From NCBI RefSeq assembly GCF_011045215.1, contig NZ_CP049201.1: a stretch of DNA of 64,000 nt. One strand, 5' to 3'. The notes under the pieces were generated by a model. That model saw only the letters and a program-made list of their open reading frames with translations. It did not search any database and was not told the DNA's origin. This document shows, piece by piece, positions 42,213 to 49,983 of the stretch. This stretch comes from Escherichia coli. GTDB taxonomy: Bacteria > Pseudomonadota > Gammaproteobacteria > Enterobacterales > Enterobacteriaceae. The position numbers and the translations under genes are program-made. Each line of letters begins with the position of its first letter. The stretch's first letter is position 1.

Positions 42213-42658
42213 ATCGTTTTTACTGTCCCTTTATTGTCCCTGTAAAACATCAAAACCCGCTGCATAACATCGCTATTCCGGCACTCACGACAGATTATGT
42301 TCTGACGCCTGTCATAGCGGCGTATTTCTCCATCTGGTAATGAATAAATCAGGTCTGGGTCGCTCTTTTTCTTCGCTCTGTTTTTCTTCACTCCCCCTTT
42401 CGCGATCTTTTGGTGAGCCCTTTCCCAGTCCCTGTGCGCCTGCTCAGACGGAAATACCCCGTAGTCAGAGTTGTACACCTCACCGCTGGCAGCAAGCTCT
42501 CTGGATAAGCGACCGGTAGTGACTCTGCTGACACCCGTTTTATCTGCCAACTGCTGATGTGTTTCTCGCCCACTCTGGCGTACGAGCTCCACAATGCGCG
42601 CCTTCACTTCTTCCCGTTGTTCGTGTGTGAAAGGTTTTGCCATAAGCGCCTCCGGCAA
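42209..42658 (-). CDS. Hypothetical protein
   Basis: 149 aa ORF. Confidence 0.4.
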   Translation of the reverse strand: MPEALMAKPFTHEQREEVKARIVELVRQSGRETHQQLADKTGVSRVTTGRLSRELAASGEVYNSDYGVFPSEQAHRDWERAHQKIAKGGVKKNRAKKKSDPDLIYSLPDGEIRRYDRRQNIICRECRNSDVMQRVLMFYRDNKGTVKTI

Positions 42659-43429
42659 TCACTTTTCTGATGCAACACGGCGGGAAGAATCAGTCATCTG
42701 CCGGAAAATATCCCGGTGCTTGTTCAGCTCCCGCAGCGCAGCGCAGACACGTTCCCACTTCCGGATATGACTTTTTGCCCGGCGCAGTTCACGGTTTGCC
42801 ATATGTAGCGATGGCAGCATTACATAGTCGGTATGTTTTTCGGTGAACAATGGCAGTGACTGCACAATATCCGCCACCGTTTCTGTTTTAATTTCTTCCT
42901 GTGTTGCAACCTCCTGTACTGGTAACGCAACCCCCGCTGGCTGAGGAAAGGCTTTACCATCAGTTTCCGCTACCGATGCGGCTTTCAGTTCTGCTGGTAA
43001 ATTCTCGCCTGGCATGCAGTAACGAAATTTACCGTTCTGATTAACGCGTGCCAGTCGCCCTGTTGAGGTTACTACCGCCAGCGTGGAAGCAACCTTGCGA
43101 ATGCTGACACCGAACTTACCCGCCAGTTCCTCACACGTTTTAGCCCCCTCCTGGCCGATAAACTCAATCATCATGTCAGCGGTAACTTTTTGTTCGCCCA
43201 CCCCGGTTAGCACATCCGGTGCTTCAGATTGTACTGGCTGCTCTTCGGTTACCCCGGATTCACCTTCGCCAGCCAGAAACCAGGTGTGGCCAGTTTTATC
43301 AACGACGCCATTTCTTTTGAGTTCCCACAGCTCGTTCAGAACTTCTTCACGACTGATTTCAAGTCGTGCGACCAGTTCCACCGACGTGGCTTTTCCCATT
43401 GCTTTCAGTGCATCAAAAACGGTCTCCAT
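42659..43429 (-). CDS. Hypothetical protein
   Basis: 256 aa ORF downstream of DnaC-like gene. Confidence 0.4.
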
Positions 43430-43468
43430 TAAAATTTCCTCCCGGTAAAATTATTTCTCAATTCCTGG

Positions 43469-44197
43469 CTAACCAACATTTGAACGCCAGCTCTCCCAGT
43501 TAAAATTCACCCAGCGACCACCGTTCATGGTCATGCGGTCCATCACGCGCTCGCCAAGCAGCGTATTCATTGCCGTATGGTTCAGGTTCGTCAGCATCCC
43601 GACGCTGTGCATCGAGGCTGTTCTGCGATCGACTATCTGGTTCAGTGTGACCTGTTCGTTACGCGTATCCCGCTGCATACCAATTTCATCCAGGACAAGC
43701 AGGTCAACTTCACACAACCCCTGCAAAAATTTTTCGCCCGAGTTTTTGTTGTCGTAGTTGCCGTGTAACGCCAGCATCACATCCGCCACCGTCACCACAA
43801 TCACGCTGCGACCTTTCGCCAGAAGATGGTTGCCAATGGCTGCTGCCAGATGATTCTTTCCGGTACCCGGCTTACCGCTGAACACGAAATTTGTGCATCC
43901 GGTCATCATTTCTTCCGCGATGGATTTTGCCTGGCTCAGCGCGTGGCGTTGGCCATCGTTCTTCACCTGGTAATTCGCAAACGAACACTTCTGGTGCAAC
44001 AGTTGGATACCGGAACGCTTCATAATTTTCTCCACCCGGATCTGGCGATTCTGGCGGTTAATTTCCTCACTACGCTTTCGCCCTTCTGCAAGCTGCCACT
44101 CTCGCCACTCGTCCACTGTCCGGTACGGCGCGGTTACATGCTGCGGGGCCAGCTTACGGATACGCTCAAGAACACCACCTGCCGCAATATTTTTCAT
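43469..44197 (-). CDS. DnaC-like helicase loader (IstB-like ATPase)
   Basis: 242 aa; Walker A GKPGTGKNHLAAAIG, Walker B LLVLDEIG. Confidence 0.8.
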   Translation of the reverse strand: MKNIAAGGVLERIRKLAPQHVTAPYRTVDEWREWQLAEGRKRSEEINRQNRQIRVEKIMKRSGIQLLHQKCSFANYQVKNDGQRHALSQAKSIAEEMMTGCTNFVFSGKPGTGKNHLAAAIGNHLLAKGRSVIVVTVADVMLALHGNYDNKNSGEKFLQGLCEVDLLVLDEIGMQRDTRNEQVTLNQIVDRRTASMHSVGMLTNLNHTAMNTLLGERVMDRMTMNGGRWVNFNWESWRSNVG

Positions 44198-44203
44198 AAC
44201 CCG

Positions 44204-45313
44204 TTACCCCCTGAATCCCGGCGGAATTTCGGTATCCGGTTCAGAAATATGATTCACACAACGCTGGTTGTTCGTGCCGCTTACCGGGAGCAACCAGGGG
44301 TTTTCAAAATTCCGGTCCGGTCCAAAAAACGTCGTCGCTCGCTGAACAAATTCCGTTCCCGCTTTCCCGGTCGCCGCCAGGTATCTCGCGTAACGCCTCA
44401 CACCATCCAGCATGGTCTCTGGTGGCACCCCCTCGCGCAATCTGGCCTTCCAGGCACTGAATGCGGATTTCTTCGGGTTTGCCCCGGCACGCAACGGGTA
44501 TTCCCGCCAGACCTGTTCGAACACATCCGGATAATCCACTCGTCCCACAGGCCGCCCGGTGTTTTCCGGGACTACCCGATCGGCTTCCCGCTGAATGGCG
44601 GAATCGGCTTCAGGCTGCTGCAGTTGGTGTGATTGCTCCGACCCTGCGGTCATCACCTGCTGCACAGCGCCCGAATCGGTTTTCAGCGCATACGCCGAAT
44701 CGGCTTCCGGTGTCGTGCCTGCTGGCTGACCAGAATTTACGGTCTGAACATCCCCTGCCTGGTTCGTGGTGTTTTTTTCGCCATGAGCTATAGTGTTTTT
44801 GTCCTGTTCTTTCTCCTGCTCCTGTTCCTGTTCTTGGCTTCGAAGCCCCTTAAAAGCCCCTTCGAAGCCCCTTACCGAATTTCGGCTATTATTCCGCCTC
44901 ACATCCAGATGGAAATCCGTTTTATATCTGTCGTAAAACGCTGACAGAAAAGCGTTTTCAGGTAATGATGCATACTCATTCCTGACACCTGCACAACGGT
45001 TATCGCCAGGCTTCAACGTTTCCCCAACCTGCCAGGCTGCCATTTCATGGACCCAGACCATCTCGGCATCATGGTCATAGCTACAAAAACCAGCTTCAAC
45101 AGCCCTTTTAAGCCCCTTTGAAGCCCCTTCCAGACCAAGCCCGGTTTCATGAGCAAGGTATAAAACTGGCAGGTAATACAAACCCAGCATATTTGCGTGA
45201 GGGGATGTCATCAGGTAAAAAGCAACAACTTGCGCTTCTGCACCCGCCTTTCTAAGTTCTCTCCCCGTTTCTCCCAGCCAGAATCGCGGAGAAACTTTTG
45301 CGTAATCACGCAT
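44204..45313 (-). CDS. Replication initiator/replisome organizer (lambda O-like role) with internal iterons
   Basis: About 369 aa from MRDYAKVSPRFW...; central low-complexity QEQEQEQEK linker; iterons inside coding sequence. Confidence 0.6.
   Translation of the reverse strand: MRDYAKVSPRFWLGETGRELRKAGAEAQVVAFYLMTSPHANMLGLYYLPVLYLAHETGLGLEGASKGLKRAVEAGFCSYDHDAEMVWVHEMAAWQVGETLKPGDNRCAGVRNEYASLPENAFLSAFYDRYKTDFHLDVRRNNSRNSVRGFEGAFKGLRSQEQEQEQEKEQDKNTIAHGEKNTTNQAGDVQTVNSGQPAGTTPEADSAYALKTDSGAVQQVMTAGSEQSHQLQQPEADSAIQREADRVVPENTGRPVGRVDYPDVFEQVWREYPLRAGANPKKSAFSAWKARLREGVPPETMLDGVRRYARYLAATGKAGTEFVQRATTFFGPDRNFENPWLLPVSGTNNQRCVNHISEPDTEIPPGFRG
44838..45135. repeat. Two clusters of AAGCCCCTT iterons inside the replication initiator gene (putative ori)
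   Basis: cgAAGCCCCTTaaAAGCCCCTTcgAAGCCCCTT at 44838-44876 and agCCCTTTTAAGCCCCTTTGAAGCCCCTT at 45100-45135. Confidence 0.55.
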
Positions 45314-45530
45314 GGCTACCTCATCTGGTGCCGAACCTTCCTCCGGATATAATCTGTGGTTCCCAATCGACAGAACCAGAGGAGGTTCGACATGTATTTT
45401 TTGAAAAGCCTTTATCAGGCTCATGTATTAAATGTTGCAGCAACAAACCGCTGGTGTAACAGCCCCGAAATGCTCCCGGATTACAGAGCCTGGCTGCGCG
45501 CCGAAACATACCTTCGTCTCGACATATTGA

Positions 45531-46040
45531 TTAGCGAACTTCAAAAAGAGACTGCATCCATTCATAACCTTCAGGGTATCGACGCTGTTCGCATTCTGGT
45601 ATCGCGCCATAGTGCTCTCTCAATAATTGAAGTGCGTCATCTCTCTTTTTCTGAACTGATTTTCTTGCTTCAACCAGCTCTGGAATCAGCGAATATCCCA
45701 CCGAAAGTGATCCAATACCCACCTCATGTTGACGAGCAGTTACAAGATGTGCCATACAACCAGCGTGCTGGATTGACTCCCTGCTCAGAGGCTGAATGGG
45801 ATCACTCTCTGCTGAAGAAATACCAAGATTTGTATAATCCTCAATAAGCCCGGCACACGCTTCTGCATCAGCCAGCTTTATTCTGGTTTCCTTGCGCTGC
45901 TCTCTGGCTGACAAACGCCAGAGCAGCGCATTAGCTTTATGTATCAACCACTCTGCCAGCTCCACATCAGATAAACCGCCACGCCAGATGTGCGGACTGT
46001 TTTCGTAAACGCTCAGTGTCAATTTTTTGTCATTACTCAT
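45531..46040 (-). CDS. Hypothetical protein
   Basis: About 169 aa from MSNDKKLTLSVYE... Confidence 0.4.
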   Translation of the reverse strand: MSNDKKLTLSVYENSPHIWRGGLSDVELAEWLIHKANALLWRLSAREQRKETRIKLADAEACAGLIEDYTNLGISSAESDPIQPLSRESIQHAGCMAHLVTARQHEVGIGSLSVGYSLIPELVEARKSVQKKRDDALQLLREHYGAIPECEQRRYPEGYEWMQSLFEVR

Positions 46041-46053
46041 ATTTATTACCCAA

Positions 46054-46479
46054 TTAATGCACAGCCAGAGTGTTTCCTGCCGGGCCACCACGATTCATCT
46101 GATCGAACAGAACGATCGCTGATGCAACGAAATCATCAATATCTTTCACCAGCCGTTCCTTCGTCTCTACCAACTCCCGAAAATAAGCGGAACTGTGGCT
46201 GCGCATTCGGGCCACCAGCGGAGGCGGCATTGCTTTTTCGATCGCTGGTAACAACGCCTGAATTTTTTTAACCGCATCAGGGGTGTCTTTATCCAGCCAA
46301 CGGAAAATTTTCTGGGTATTACGAGCCAGCGCTTCCGGATGCCTGTCGTCATATAGCTCCGGGAACGTCATACCCAGCTCAAAATAAGCCTGGGTTATTT
46401 CAGCTGCCGGAACTTTTTCACCGTCCGGATGCGCCCAGGCATTCATCGCCATACGGATGTGTTCATGCTTGATTTTCAT
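46054..46479 (-). CDS. YdaT-like protein (Rac-type)
   Basis: 141 aa MKIKHEHIRMAMNAWAHPDGEK...; follows Cro-like gene as ydaT follows ydaS in Rac (from memory). Confidence 0.5.
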   Translation of the reverse strand: MKIKHEHIRMAMNAWAHPDGEKVPAAEITQAYFELGMTFPELYDDRHPEALARNTQKIFRWLDKDTPDAVKKIQALLPAIEKAMPPPLVARMRSHSSAYFRELVETKERLVKDIDDFVASAIVLFDQMNRGGPAGNTLAVH

Positions 46480-46738
46480 GAATCAACTCCGGTGTATTTG
46501 GTGTGTTAGCCTTATCTCCAGCAGGCAACCCGTCAGTTGGATTCGGGTATAAATCTGGTCGCAATTCATGAGGAGTCACCCCAGTTGCAATATAAATTTG
46601 ACGAACCCGTTCCCCCGTCGGAACTCGACCATTGTATTCATTTGCCCATTTGTGTATTTGAGATGGCCAAGCCCCTATTGCACGCCCTAGTGGACGAATA
46701 CCACCAGCAATCTTTATTGCTTTGTCCAATGCTGTCAT
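46463..46738 (-). CDS. YdaS/Cro-like HTH regulator
   Basis: 91 aa, first gene of rightward early operon, divergent from repressor gene. Confidence 0.55.
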   Translation of the reverse strand: MTALDKAIKIAGGIRPLGRAIGAWPSQIHKWANEYNGRVPTGERVRQIYIATGVTPHELRPDLYPNPTDGLPAGDKANTPNTPELIHENQA

Positions 46739-46841
46739 ACAACCTCCAGTTCAACTAATCATAACAATTGTTCACTTAAAACGAACATAAGTCAACACCT
46801 CGAGGAATTGTTAGTGTTCACTGAACGGTTATAATTGCTAA
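46739..46841. promoter_or_regulatory. Immunity-region divergent promoter/operators
   Basis: Palindrome GTTCACTGAAC and related TTGTTCACTT half-sites between divergent repressor and cro-like genes. Confidence 0.45.
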
Positions 46842-47231
46842 ATGGACATGAGAAAAAAGCAATACGACACCCCGCTAGCAGAAAGGTTAGATGCGATCTC
46901 TCAACAGCATCATTTAAGTGGTTCAGATTTAGCGCGTATCGCTGGTGTAGGTCGTTCATCAGTCAACGCATGGAAAAAAAGAGGAACAATCAGTAAAGAT
47001 TCCGCAGCCAAAATTGCAGAAGCCACAAACGTTTCCCTTTCTTGGCTACTGACAGGGAAAGAAGAGACAAATAGAGAAGCGCTTGATGATGACGAGAAGG
47101 CCCTGCTTGATGTTTACAGAAACCTGCCACCTGTAGAACGTAGAAATATGCTGGCAGCTTTTCAAATGCGACTTCAAAAACTGACCGAATTTTACTCAGA
47201 ATACGTCGACCCAATAACACGACAAAAATAA
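46842..47231 (+). CDS. Prophage repressor, HTH (RacR-like; no S24 peptidase domain)
   Basis: 129 aa; N-terminal HTH ...LSGSDLARIAGVGRSSVNAWKK... Confidence 0.6.
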   Translation: MDMRKKQYDTPLAERLDAISQQHHLSGSDLARIAGVGRSSVNAWKKRGTISKDSAAKIAEATNVSLSWLLTGKEETNREALDDDEKALLDVYRNLPPVERRNMLAAFQMRLQKLTEFYSEYVDPITRQK

Positions 47232-47399
47232 TTCTTTATTTTACAGAATCATACCGCCGCAAGGCGGTTTTTTTTACCTTTTACGTATTCATAATGTTGA
47301 CTTTTGTTCACCCAAAGAGAACAATGTATTCCATCAAAGCACAACGGTGCGACAGGTCTTAGTTCCGCTACCCCGGCGTTAAGGGGAAATGAGGTCAAC

Positions 47400-47555
47400 A
47401 TGGATACTATCGATCTTGGCAACAACGAATCTCTGGTATACGGCGTGTTCCCCAACCAGGACGGCACGTTCACCGCCATGACGTATACCAAAAGCAAAAC
47501 GTTTAAAACCGAATCTGGCGCGCGTCGCTGGCTGGAAAGAAACTCAGGTGAGTGA
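47400..47555 (+). CDS. YdaF-like small protein
   Basis: 51 aa MDTIDLGNNESLVYGVFPNQDGTFTAM... with good RBS. Confidence 0.45.
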   Translation: MDTIDLGNNESLVYGVFPNQDGTFTAMTYTKSKTFKTESGARRWLERNSGE

Positions 47556-47556
47556 T

Positions 47557-47685
47557 ATGGATTTCGACACAATCATGGAAAAGGCTTACGAAGAATACTT
47601 CGAAGGCCTTGCCGAAGGCGAAGAAGCTCTCAGCTTCAGCGAATTTAAACAGGCGCTTTCCAGTTCGGTAAAATCTAACGGCTGA
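47557..47685 (+). CDS. YdaG-like small protein
   Basis: 42 aa MDFDTIMEKAYEEYFEGLAEGEE...; below ORF-track length cutoff, read directly. Confidence 0.35.
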   Translation: MDFDTIMEKAYEEYFEGLAEGEEALSFSEFKQALSSSVKSNG

Positions 47686-47714
47686 TAAGCGAAGCGGCAC
47701 CGCGAGGAATCAGT

Positions 47715-47933
47715 ATGCAGAAACGAGAACCCCTCATCATCGCACCAGACTATACCGATGATGAACTTTATGAGTGGATGCGCGGGAAGATACGCGCCAT
47801 TAATGACCTGAAGCAGGCCACTGACCACAAAGAGCGCCTCTCTGAAACACTGACGTCAGTGACGCAGGATATTATCGCTCTGGCAAAAAGCGCGGCATTA
47901 AACGTTTCGCGACCGGTAAAAACAACTGACTAA
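47715..47933 (+). CDS. Hypothetical protein
   Basis: 72 aa ORF. Confidence 0.4.
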   Translation: MQKREPLIIAPDYTDDELYEWMRGKIRAINDLKQATDHKERLSETLTSVTQDIIALAKSAALNVSRPVKTTD

Positions 47934-48102
47934 TGAGGTTAACCATGAATGAGGCAGAACTGAGACACGTTATAGCATTGCTTCTGGAAGATGCAAAACG
48001 TCTACATGAACTGGAACCAAATGCAGGCACAGGGGCCCGTATTTTGTTAGCAAAAAAATGTCTTGCTTCACAAGTGGTAAAAGCAACTGAACAGCGAGGT
48101 TA

Positions 48103-48741
48103 ATGATGGAATTTAAAGATTTACCGCTATCAATCCAGGGGATTGCAGCACACACACTACGTCAACGTCTGAACGAAGCTATGGCTGAATCTGCAACGAA
48201 AGAAACCATTGATAACATGGCTCGTAATGTGCACGATGCGTTTACCGGATTGTATTTCTGTGCGTCTGTAAATAAACACGACCCAGAGAGTGTGGCAAAG
48301 AAAATTGCAGAAACGACAGTGCAAAACATCAATACGAAACCAACCGAAGACGAAATTGACCAGCCTGCCAGTGAACAAAAGAAAGAAAAATCGCCATATG
48401 CGGGGAACATGTTTGTTTATGACAAACTTATCCGAATTCGTGGCGAAATTCCGACTGAATACCTGGCAAAAATTCACCAGGCATTACTTAAAAATCTGGA
48501 AACGGAAGTATTTGATGGCAACACCAACGGCTCCTTCGTGGTGTCAGCCCTCACAAAAGAATGGGATACAGATAATCGCCGGAATGTTGCTACATGGTTA
48601 TTCAGCAACAAAGCTGCTGCCCTGGAAGCTGCGGCCTGTATTTGCGACCTGCTAAGGACAGACCGCAAATACAACCTGGATGTGTATAGCTATATTTATG
48701 CTGAACACTATCCACTCTGGATTGACTGGTTTAAAGGGTAA
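48103..48741 (+). CDS. Hypothetical protein
   Basis: 212 aa ORF in leftward early region. Confidence 0.45.
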   Translation: MMEFKDLPLSIQGIAAHTLRQRLNEAMAESATKETIDNMARNVHDAFTGLYFCASVNKHDPESVAKKIAETTVQNINTKPTEDEIDQPASEQKKEKSPYAGNMFVYDKLIRIRGEIPTEYLAKIHQALLKNLETEVFDGNTNGSFVVSALTKEWDTDNRRNVATWLFSNKAAALEAAACICDLLRTDRKYNLDVYSYIYAEHYPLWIDWFKG

Positions 48742-49983
48742 CACCTGCGGGACCGAGCCGACCAGCACCACGATTATTTTATCCTCCATTAAGGGGTGAA
48801 TTAAAAATGGAGACCAACACGCTGCTACGTGTGGTCGTGCGCCGGACACGGATAACCTTCCGGCATGCTCTTTAACAATCTGGATATCCACAACAGCAAT
48901 AACCTACGGATTGCTGCTCAATGCTCTACCTATCTCTTCTTCAGATGGGGGCGGTATATAGTCATCATTGCGTTCAAATTTAAAGCGCGAATCACATTTC
49001 AGGCATTTAGAAATATGGAACTTATCATGCTCACCAATTTCAACAGGTTGAAGTATTGCTATTACACCATGCTGATAGCAATTGGGACAGGCATAGTGAA
49101 AACATGTGTCTTCTTCGTCGAGGCTGTTCCTGAAAGCATAGACAAAATGCCCAAAACCAGTTTTGTGTATCGTATAGCATTCAAGTTTTCGATTACGCTC
49201 GTCAATTTCATGACATTTTTACTTAAGCAAGAGTATTTCCTCGTACTGAAGCGCGAGCGTTTTCGCTAGCTCTGCGTTCTGTATTTGTAAGTCTGCCAGT
49301 TGGCGACGCATTTCGTAGACAGCCTTTTCACGTTCAGATTGGCTTTTTGCATCAAGTATTACCTGTAATAAATCAATCGAGACTTTAATTGCCGTTATTG
49401 ATGAAGTTATTCCAGATAGCATTCTTAACTCTCTTTGTTGTTGGGGTATCCGGATTATACAAAATTCTTGTTGTTGGGGAACAACAGGAACCACCTCGCC
49501 TGATGTGGTTAAAAGCAGGCACACAACACGAAAGCGCACGGCGAAGGTTTCTTTTCCTTAGAAGGCTTGTCGTTAGATTTCTTCGGCCGTGCGCTTCCGG
49601 TTGTGGCAATCCGCGAAATGGCGCGGCGGTAAGTATGGCGGGGTTATCCTTACCCCCACTGGTAGCACCGGGTTGTCAGGTTGACCATACGCTTAAGTGA
49701 CAACCCCGCTACAACATCTCCATGTTGAGGCTTGTGTGAGACCTTTGGCGGCATCAGTTTAATTGCTGGCTGATGTCCGCCCTTTTTAAAGTGAATTTTG
49801 TGATGTGGTGAATGCGGCTAAGCGCACGCGGAACAGTTAAAAGACCATTTGTTCTCCGTATCAATACTTATGGGTAGGTACTTGCAGGCGGGTCCCTGTA
49901 TTCCGGCGTTAATTGTTAACTGGTTAACGTCACCTGGAGGCACCAGGCACCGCATCACAAAATTCATTGTTGAGGACGCGATA

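Follow-up and report, generated by a model that had tools for sequence, protein, structure and literature searches.

We analysed a window of 64,000 nucleotides (nt) from Escherichia coli (NCBI RefSeq assembly GCF_011045215.1, contig NZ_CP049201.1), i.e., the whole stretch of DNA to which all coordinates below refer. We focus on a putative replication initiator gene of a lambdoid prophage, whose own coding sequence holds two clusters of short, phased repeats that probably act as iterons of the prophage's replication origin. The gene, its domains and the repeats are laid out as follows:

44204..45313, minus strand: initiator gene, 369 amino acids (aa) when read from the ATG at 45313, within a frame that is open up to 45424
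44837..45313, minus strand: N-terminal winged-helix domain (N-domain), putatively origin-binding, aa 1-159
45099..45129, minus strand: putative iteron cluster B, with B1 (45121-45129) and B2 (45110-45118) exact AAGGGGCTT and B3 (45099-45107) degenerate
44876..44985, no strand assigned: relatively AT-rich stretch between the clusters that abuts cluster A, candidate unwinding region
44843..44873, minus strand: putative iteron cluster A, with A3 (44865-44873), A2 (44854-44862) and A1 (44843-44851), all exact and 11 base pairs (bp) apart
44832..44840, minus strand: possible fourth half iteron of cluster A, AAGCCAAGA on the coding strand, 11 bp from A1
44798..44839, minus strand: SQEQEQEQEKEQDK interdomain linker and module junction; all homologues examined have a linker of the SQEQEQ type after cluster A
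44207..44797, minus strand: C-terminal domain (C-domain), 95% nt identity to initiators with other N-domains, ending in a DnaT-like tail

An initial annotation of this DNA had placed two repeat clusters about 220 bp apart inside the initiator's coding sequence and had proposed a motif search as a check. When both strands of the window are searched, the 9-mer AAGCCCCTT is found in five exact copies, all on the plus strand (starting at 44843, 44854, 44865, 45110 and 45121) and all within 44843-45129, i.e., within less than 290 bp. The chance level is 0.57 ± 0.77 copies, and at least five copies were reached in 0/100 dinucleotide-preserving shuffles of the window. If one mismatch is allowed, 13 occurrences are found compared to 14 expected, such that the 9-mer is not enriched window-wide. 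That is, the signal is the local cluster of exact, phased copies. A sixth, degenerate copy (CAGCCCTTT, 45099-45107) lies 11 bp from its neighbour in cluster B.

Within each cluster the period is exactly 11 bp, while 224 bp separate the clusters; distance, coordinates and repeat description of the initial annotation were thus correct. On the plus strand, 44837-44878 reads GCTTCG-AAGCCCCTT-AA-AAGCCCCTT-CG-AAGCCCCTT-ACCG and 45099-45131 reads CAGCCCTTT-TA-AGCCCCTT-TG-AAGCCCCTT-CC. The coding-strand form of the unit is AAGGGGCTT with a period of 11 nt. The open reading frame (ORF) at 44204..45424 on the minus strand translates the two clusters into ...LEGASKGLKRAV... and ...VRGFEGAFKGLRS..., which confirms that they encode the FEGAFKGL and GASKGL segments named before. 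Cluster A corresponds to RGFEGAFKGL in a disordered (low-confidence) tail of the N-domain ahead of the SQEQEQ linker, cluster B (codons 62-72) to EGASKGLKRA within the predicted recognition helix H3. Successive copies of cluster A read (R)GF, EGA and KGL; those of cluster B read EGA, KGL and (K)RA. With a period of 11 nt the copies are read in all three frames and thus cannot be generated by a peptide repeat. Taken together, the initiator's own coding sequence contains six phased AAG-SSS-CTT copies with internal dyad symmetry, arranged in two clusters.

Next, we consider the conservation of the repeats at the DNA level. About 320 related loci were gathered from IMG/VR and GenBank phages; the comparison covers 185 unique coding sequences of the N-domain whose products share 50% aa identity or more with the window protein, and a codon alignment of 83 representatives with less than 90% nucleotide identity. 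Among the 185 unique homologues, the motif is located almost only at gene nt ~182-196 and ~430-465. Cluster B is always in forward orientation. For cluster A, roughly one third of the homologues share the forward orientation of the window, while roughly two thirds show the inverted one (63-68/76 among the representatives). Where cluster A is inverted, AAGCCCCTT is found on the coding strand and the peptide EAP/KPL replaces EGA/KGL, i.e., the 9-mer is kept at the cost of the encoded residues. Single repeats are flipped in a few genomes.

Synonymous codon choice within the repeats is nearly frozen. For the 83 representatives, the relative codon entropy is 0.21 for the 14 iteron codons compared to 0.83 for the 79 other conserved codons (Mann-Whitney p = 1e-8). 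Glycine is encoded by GGG in 81/81 cases, glutamate by GAA in 79/79, lysine by AAG in 80/80 and leucine by CTT in 96%, whereas outside the iterons synonymous codons of glycine and leucine are used freely and the four glycine codons are roughly even. The serine codon across a 2-nt spacer is free as well (0.70), and the 2-nt spacers between repeats vary. Nearly all of the domain's lowest-entropy columns are iteron codons or the serine and glutamine codons adjoining cluster A. Here, Ser159 is AGC in 81/81 and Gln160 is CAA in 95% of the representatives; together they form AAGCC, 11 nt from A1. This may be a half-site, since its synonymous conservation is otherwise unexplained.

B1, B2, A2 and A1 are nearly invariant AAGGGGCTT (82 representatives), while B3 and A3 are weaker within the family; the window differs by copy, with a perfect A3 and a degenerate B3. 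The consensus is AAG-SSS-CTT with palindromic arms, and the centre triplet takes any combination of G and C. We also looked for covariation of the centre triplet between the two clusters of a genome (AAGGGCCTT variants). It is inconsistent, and the centre appears to be G/C-tolerant. The repeats are, with near certainty, DNA-level elements that are under strong selection independent of coding.

The gene product belongs to a family that is widespread and currently without a Pfam domain: it comprises 2419 clusters at 90% identity, is found in 476/5426 complete E. coli genomes and is annotated as 'DNA-binding protein' or 'hypothetical'. The true start is most likely the ATG at 45313, since PGAP starts at the equivalent methionine in E. 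coli PE164, whose locus is 99.4% identical, the PHROG profiles begin there (residue 38 of the long ORF), MRDY opens all homologues, and GAGG is located 5 nt upstream of the ATG. The resulting length equals that of the PGAP-annotated gene in strain PE164. Pfam yields no family, Phage_rep_O included, whether the whole protein (E ≤ 0.01) or the N-domain by itself (E ≤ 10) is searched; likewise, there is no match to the Pfam DnaD/DnaB_2 or Phage_rep_org_N domains. PHROG labels are 'DnaD-like helicase loader' (PHROG 1701) or 'replication initiation protein'. With NF002770, the DnaT equivalog, the score reaches 17.7 bits while the cut-off is 201, and the alignment covers the last 24 residues only.

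The structure model of the N-domain is a winged helix-turn-helix (wHTH), whose predicted recognition helix is encoded by one of the two clusters. In a fold search with the N-domain, generic wHTH regulators outscore Rep proteins. Homologues of the N-terminal 160 residues with 57-79% identity exist in Klebsiella, Shigella Shiga-toxin (Stx; POCJ13, 75/02), Acinetobacter, E. coli and Ralstonia phages. The C-domain ends in the DnaT-like tail RCVNHISEPDTEIPPGFRG (last 19 residues, 44207-44263), which matches the extreme C-terminus of E. coli DnaT (PDB 6aep, 2ru8, 9zbt; E 0.002-0.006) and that of Rac YdaU. The initiator gene, dnaT and ydaU are all located upstream of dnaC or a dnaC-like gene, and the RCVNHISEPDTEIPPGFRG-type tail that their products have in common may serve for docking to the DnaB-DnaC machinery. 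The preprimosome structure paper (PMC13377028) leaves the DnaB/DnaC recruitment step open.

Two further observations were made in the region of linker and C-domain. A further repeat, GAATCGGCTTC (coding GAAGCCGATTC), is present in four copies, i.e., in two pairs at 44579-44614 and 44675-44710, with ~22-24 bp within a pair and 96 bp between pairs; it shares 9/11 positions with the iteron. It is probably a peptide repeat, since it is codon-phase-locked (PEADSA, KTDS, READR) and common to phage Tritos. Within the linker-coding DNA, the plus strand at 44760-44790 shows a terminator-like hairpin followed by a T-run, antisense to the initiator (consensus match only).

The relation of repeat and N-domain can be studied in phages that carry other N-domains. 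In the initiator of Klebsiella phage ST13-OXA48phi12.4, the N-domain has 31% aa identity to that of the window while the C-domain, the DnaC-like loader and DUF977 are homologous to their counterparts in the window and the Klebsiella group. This gene carries GAAAGGGTTTC at nt 176/187 and 408/419, i.e., architecture and positions match those of the window family, and the arrangement is kept in 73/81 related loci. At the two homologous positions, subfamily 1 thus shows AAGGGGCTT and subfamily 2 shows AAAGGGTTT, where the change from AAG..CTT to AAA..TTT affects both arms symmetrically. That is, the motif changes with the N-domain while C-domain and loader stay homologous, and we conclude that the repeat follows the N-domain. 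A third group (Actinobacillus phage pPE4 type) shows GCCTWAGG once in the equivalent helix-coding segment and in 1-2 copies before the linker; its period of 12 nt is a multiple of three, such that the reading-frame argument is inapplicable, and we count this group as weak support.

Phage Tritos combines an unrelated N-domain with the shared C-domain. Its gene carries TGTCACG twice in the N-domain part (nt 137-165) and five times before the linker (385-435), which is acidic (DKDTDKD). Bipartite intragenic iterons may thus be general for this type of module. With regard to the window, homology to phages with a different N-domain begins at ~44799, just past cluster A and the linker: the C-terminal half (44204-44799) has 95% nt identity to initiators such as that of Tritos, where the N-domain is of the replisome-organiser type. 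Conversely, homologous N-domains are joined to various C-domains. As read from these comparisons, N-domain and repeats are inherited as one exchange module with its breakpoint just past the linker.

The switch from AAG GGG CTT to AAA GGG TTT between the subfamilies coincides with G63R, A64V and L68F in helix H3. The two strongest iterons of cluster B are codons of this predicted recognition helix, and a mutation of the putative binding site would thereby simultaneously be a mutation of the reading head. We consider it possible, though doubtful, that the origin is self-referential in this sense, i.e., that the strongest cluster-B iterons are the codons of the very recognition helix (E-G-A-S-K-G-L) that is predicted to read them.

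With regard to other features expected of an origin, the stretch at ~44876-44985 has a GC content of 0.35-0.40 compared to 0.50-0.63 for the gene sequence on either side. Averaged over 75 representatives, whose hosts are of very different GC content, no position within ±700 bp shows a deeper relative GC dip than the equivalent one (-0.127). An assignment as unwinding element is nevertheless weak. The GC skew declines monotonically across the region without an origin signal. The distance between the clusters varies among the homologues in steps of ~11-12 nt (244, 255/256, 266/267, 278), and its register modulo 11 is 2-3 in 69/76 representatives. Such a register is compatible with a helical-phasing constraint and also with simple homology. 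A separate observation concerns the Actinobacillus-type subfamily (loci L087 and L358-L404 of our collection), which carries 2-4 copies of AT-rich tandem heptamers (CAGATAA/CAGTAAA) ~500-540 nt into the gene; placed after the linker-proximal repeats, they resemble an unwinding element.

The neighbourhood of the initiator gene comprises the following features:

43469..44197, minus strand: DnaC-like helicase-loader gene, directly downstream of the initiator
46463-46738, minus strand: cro/YdaS-like gene (Pfam)
46767..46835, no strand assigned: divergent promoter-like pair between the CI-like and cro/YdaS-like genes (consensus scan only)
46842-47231, plus strand: CI-like repressor gene (Pfam)

The loader matches Pfam IstB_IS21 (5.5e-18), NCBIfam NF009043 (7.8e-145), DnaC (1.9e-93) and phrog_50. 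The order of the operon is YdaS/cro-like, YdaT-like, initiator, DnaC/IstB-like loader and DUF1627, with the CI-like gene divergent. The segment 46767..46835 probably holds an early promoter that reads through the initiator gene. Gene order and promoter-like site match a lambda-type early operon; the initiator gene is located in the early operon of a Rac-like lambdoid prophage. The initial annotation had taken the replication module to be intact. This holds at the level of ORFs only, i.e., the initiator has the length of its PE164 counterpart, and the match to NF009043 spans residues 1-241 of the loader's 248.

Two long ORFs overlap antisense at 45392-46091, between the ydaT-like gene and the initiator. 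The plus-strand ORF, at 45392-45847 and 151 aa long, is the one annotated by PGAP and has a match in NCBIfam NF033230 'ECs1072 family' (E 4.6e-30), while the minus-strand ORF (45531-46091, 186 aa) matches phrog_8304 (E 5e-119), such that each database models one strand only. Actinobacillus phage pPE4 shows a similarly placed antisense pair (gp12 and gp13).

Given these results, we favour the reading that the clusters are iterons for the initiator's winged-helix domain and form, together with the AT-richer DNA between them, the replication origin of the prophage. We hold this to be probable. For one part of it, namely that the initiator itself reads the repeats, our confidence is fairly high, and the support is indirect: the N-domain is modelled as a wHTH, the motif covaries with the N-domain, and both are inherited jointly. 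We are less confident of the other part, that the repeats are an initiation site rather than control sites.

The following mechanism can be envisaged. After derepression, an early rightward-type promoter would transcribe the cro-like, ydaT-like, initiator and dnaC-like genes. Initiator molecules would then bind the 9-bp pseudo-palindromes AAG-SSS-CTT, of which there are two or three per position, at two positions ~255 bp apart. Spaced by one helical turn, the sites of a cluster would all be on one face of the DNA. Oligomerisation between the clusters could wrap or loop the intervening DNA and thereby destabilise it, and the C-domain with its DnaT-like tail might recruit the host's DnaB via the phage's DnaC-like loader. 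For a protein-DNA complex prediction, GAAGGGGCTTC is envisaged as the DNA partner of an N-domain dimer.

Several points weigh against an origin. A site of 9 bp is short beside the iterons of lambda (19 bp) or of plasmids (17-22 bp). No DnaA box with at most one mismatch is found in 42509-48883 (~2 kb around). The GC content at third codon positions is only mildly low in 44876-44985, i.e., the GC dip is partly due to amino acid composition. The conservation tests reveal that there is some DNA-level function, not which one; binding by the initiator and a start of replication at the repeats are inferences. Ten records of the plasmid collection hold a relative; one was inspected, and no informative case of a sole replicon was obtained. 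Finally, two papers on the replication modules of Stx phages (PMC8044961, PMC8951638) mention no iterons or origin for the Eru4 type, the nearest named relative (see below).

The one small plasmid record, NZ_CP069825.1 (32 kb, linear), is uninformative with regard to an autonomous replicon, since it carries chromosomal genes besides a prophage and looks like a misassembled chromosomal fragment. A keyword search of the literature found no described origin of this replication module; when the 9-mer itself was used as query, the matches were unrelated primers and sequences throughout.

Among the alternatives, the best survivor is that the repeats are initiator or regulator sites for autoregulation, a transcriptional roadblock or copy-number control, with the origin located elsewhere in the prophage. 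Conservation and covariation show specific protein-DNA recognition and not strand opening, the AT-rich element is weak, and plasmid iterons also serve control functions (general knowledge), all of which would be in accordance with such a role. Yet there is no other cluster of the motif, neither in the window nor in the flanks of the ~320 related loci, and an origin elsewhere would thus lack initiator sites. Furthermore, the arrangement and the joint inheritance of N-domain and repeats match phages with the origin in the initiator gene (lambda, P22; general knowledge). We therefore regard control sites without an origin as unlikely.

Somewhat less likely still is that the repeats are bound by another protein, i.e., a host factor or an early phage protein (YdaT-like, DUF1627, DUF977). 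Several neighbouring genes do encode helix-turn-helix-like proteins. However, the motif shifts with the N-domain subfamily, whereas in ST13-OXA48phi12.4 the C-domain, the loader and DUF977 stay homologous. In addition, the motif is kept in Acinetobacter and Ralstonia phages, where the neighbours are annotated with different or no product names.

The exchange breakpoint right after cluster A and the QE linker, as well as the unusual conservation of the linker DNA and the Ser-Gln codons, would fit a third possibility: the conserved DNA could be a recombination joint at the module boundary that promotes lambdoid mosaic exchange and is homogenised by frequent transfer. This is improbable given that cluster B is located in the middle of the N-domain and flanked by freely varying synonymous sites, that the 2-nt spacers vary, that cluster A keeps its 9-mer in either orientation, and that a diverged subfamily shows the same architecture with a different repeat. 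Finally, although EGAxKGL occurs twice in the window protein and the first of these copies is conserved at the protein level throughout the family, an origin of the repeats as a mere by-product of this peptide without DNA-level role is excluded for practical purposes by the codon-entropy and orientation results, i.e., by GGG in 81/81 compared to roughly even glycine codons elsewhere, CTT in 96% and inverted clusters that encode EAP/KPL, as well as by the three reading frames.

Iterons within the initiator's own gene, the reading that we prefer, invite a comparison with lambda, for which we rely on general knowledge and on PMC7466680. Here, as in lambda ori within gene O (and likewise P22 gene 18 and 933W O), the repeats, putative binding sites in the case of the window, are located within the initiator's own coding sequence near the end of the N-domain and the linker. 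Common features are furthermore the inverted-repeat symmetry of each repeat, a helicase-loader gene directly after the initiator, a place downstream of a cro-like gene within the early operon, and an N-domain that is exchangeable together with the (here probable) origin and apart from the C-domain. An AT-richer stretch adjoins the repeats here as well, as a weak candidate for unwinding. In contrast to lambda, the window protein has no sequence homology to O (no Phage_rep_O match), its repeats form two clusters, separated by 224 bp, of 9-bp units with an 11-bp period, where lambda has four 19-bp iterons in a row, one cluster coincides with codons of the predicted recognition helix, and cluster orientation varies between relatives. 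The loader is DnaC/IstB-like and not P, and the C-terminus carries a DnaT-like tail.

The lambda-like arrangement proposed by the initial annotation, with iterons in the initiator's own gene, is supported by the reading frames, the frozen synonymous sites, the orientation flips, the covariation with the N-domain and the exchange of N-domain and repeats as one module. Its term 'O-like' is valid by analogy only; by homology it fails, as there is no Pfam match including Phage_rep_O and the partner is DnaC-like instead of lambda P.

SPP1 G38P is an initiator of the replisome-organiser type with oriL inside gene 38. The system of the window would work like lambda O/ori, P22 gene 18 and SPP1 G38P/oriL, but without an O or replisome-organiser domain and with a loader that is not P-like. 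Iteron plasmids with winged-helix Rep proteins (pPS10, F, R6K, pSK41 RepA) have iterons of 17-22 bp outside rep and usually DnaA boxes, whereas the window shows intragenic 9-bp sites without DnaA boxes.

Among named relatives, the Eru4 unit of Stx phages (Shigella phage 75/02 Stx, POCJ13) comes closest; its initiator N-domain is 76-79% identical to that of the window (78.6% aa identity by tblastn, 76% in the alignment). As in the window, DnaC-like and DUF1627 genes follow the initiator, and AAGGGGCTT is found at the same gene positions; in POCJ13, by contrast, the linker-proximal cluster is inverted. The immunity regions differ as well, with lambda-like N, CI and CII in POCJ13 and the YdaS/YdaT type in the window. 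The match to Eru4 rests on initiator and loader, while Eru types are defined in the literature by the two cI-adjacent genes, which are different here. The Eru4 proteins next to cI are called of unknown function in PMC8951638.

Phage Tritos resembles the window in its C-domain (95% nt identity) and in bipartite repeats inside the initiator gene; it differs in its unrelated N-domain (annotated Phage_rep_org_N) and in the repeat TGTCACG. The Rac prophage of E. coli K-12 shares the order racR, ydaS, ydaT, initiator and DnaC-like ydaV. Its YdaU has a DnaT-like tail (...PD..IPPGFRG) and internal repeats at the domain junction like the window protein, while its N-domain is DUF1376 without significant similarity and its repeats are GTTCAAACA. 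In Rac ydaU (locus L326, 3120-3977), two copies of GTTCAAACA (gene nt 394 and 427) and an inverted one (449) are located at the domain junction. These repeats may be the iterons of the Rac origin; oriJ is linked, as we assume, to the ydaU-ydaV module of E. coli K-12.

All in all, the arrangement is most likely lambda-like in principle, but realised by a different, so far uncharacterised protein family. The principle of an origin within the initiator gene is classical; new are the origin and the site proposed for this family and the coupling of the site to the helix that may read it. For Stx phages, the type of replication module was proposed to affect the stability of lysogens and the host's pathogenic potential (PMC8044961, PMC8951638). 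The family includes O157:H7 prophages as well as the Eru4-type Stx phages and is medically relevant.

With these results, a large un-annotated initiator family gains a probable origin as well as a probable role, namely origin recognition. Given a defined 9-bp site, incompatibility, origin specificity and the inhibition of replication become directly testable in these prophages. Furthermore, the bipartite and orientation-flexible layout would widen the picture of phage origins inside initiator genes. If the coupling of site and recognition helix is functional, it would provide a built-in route to co-evolving origin specificities and to replication incompatibility groups. The self-referential origin, if true, would concern a widespread un-annotated family in phages of E. 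coli O157, Klebsiella, Acinetobacter and Burkholderiales.

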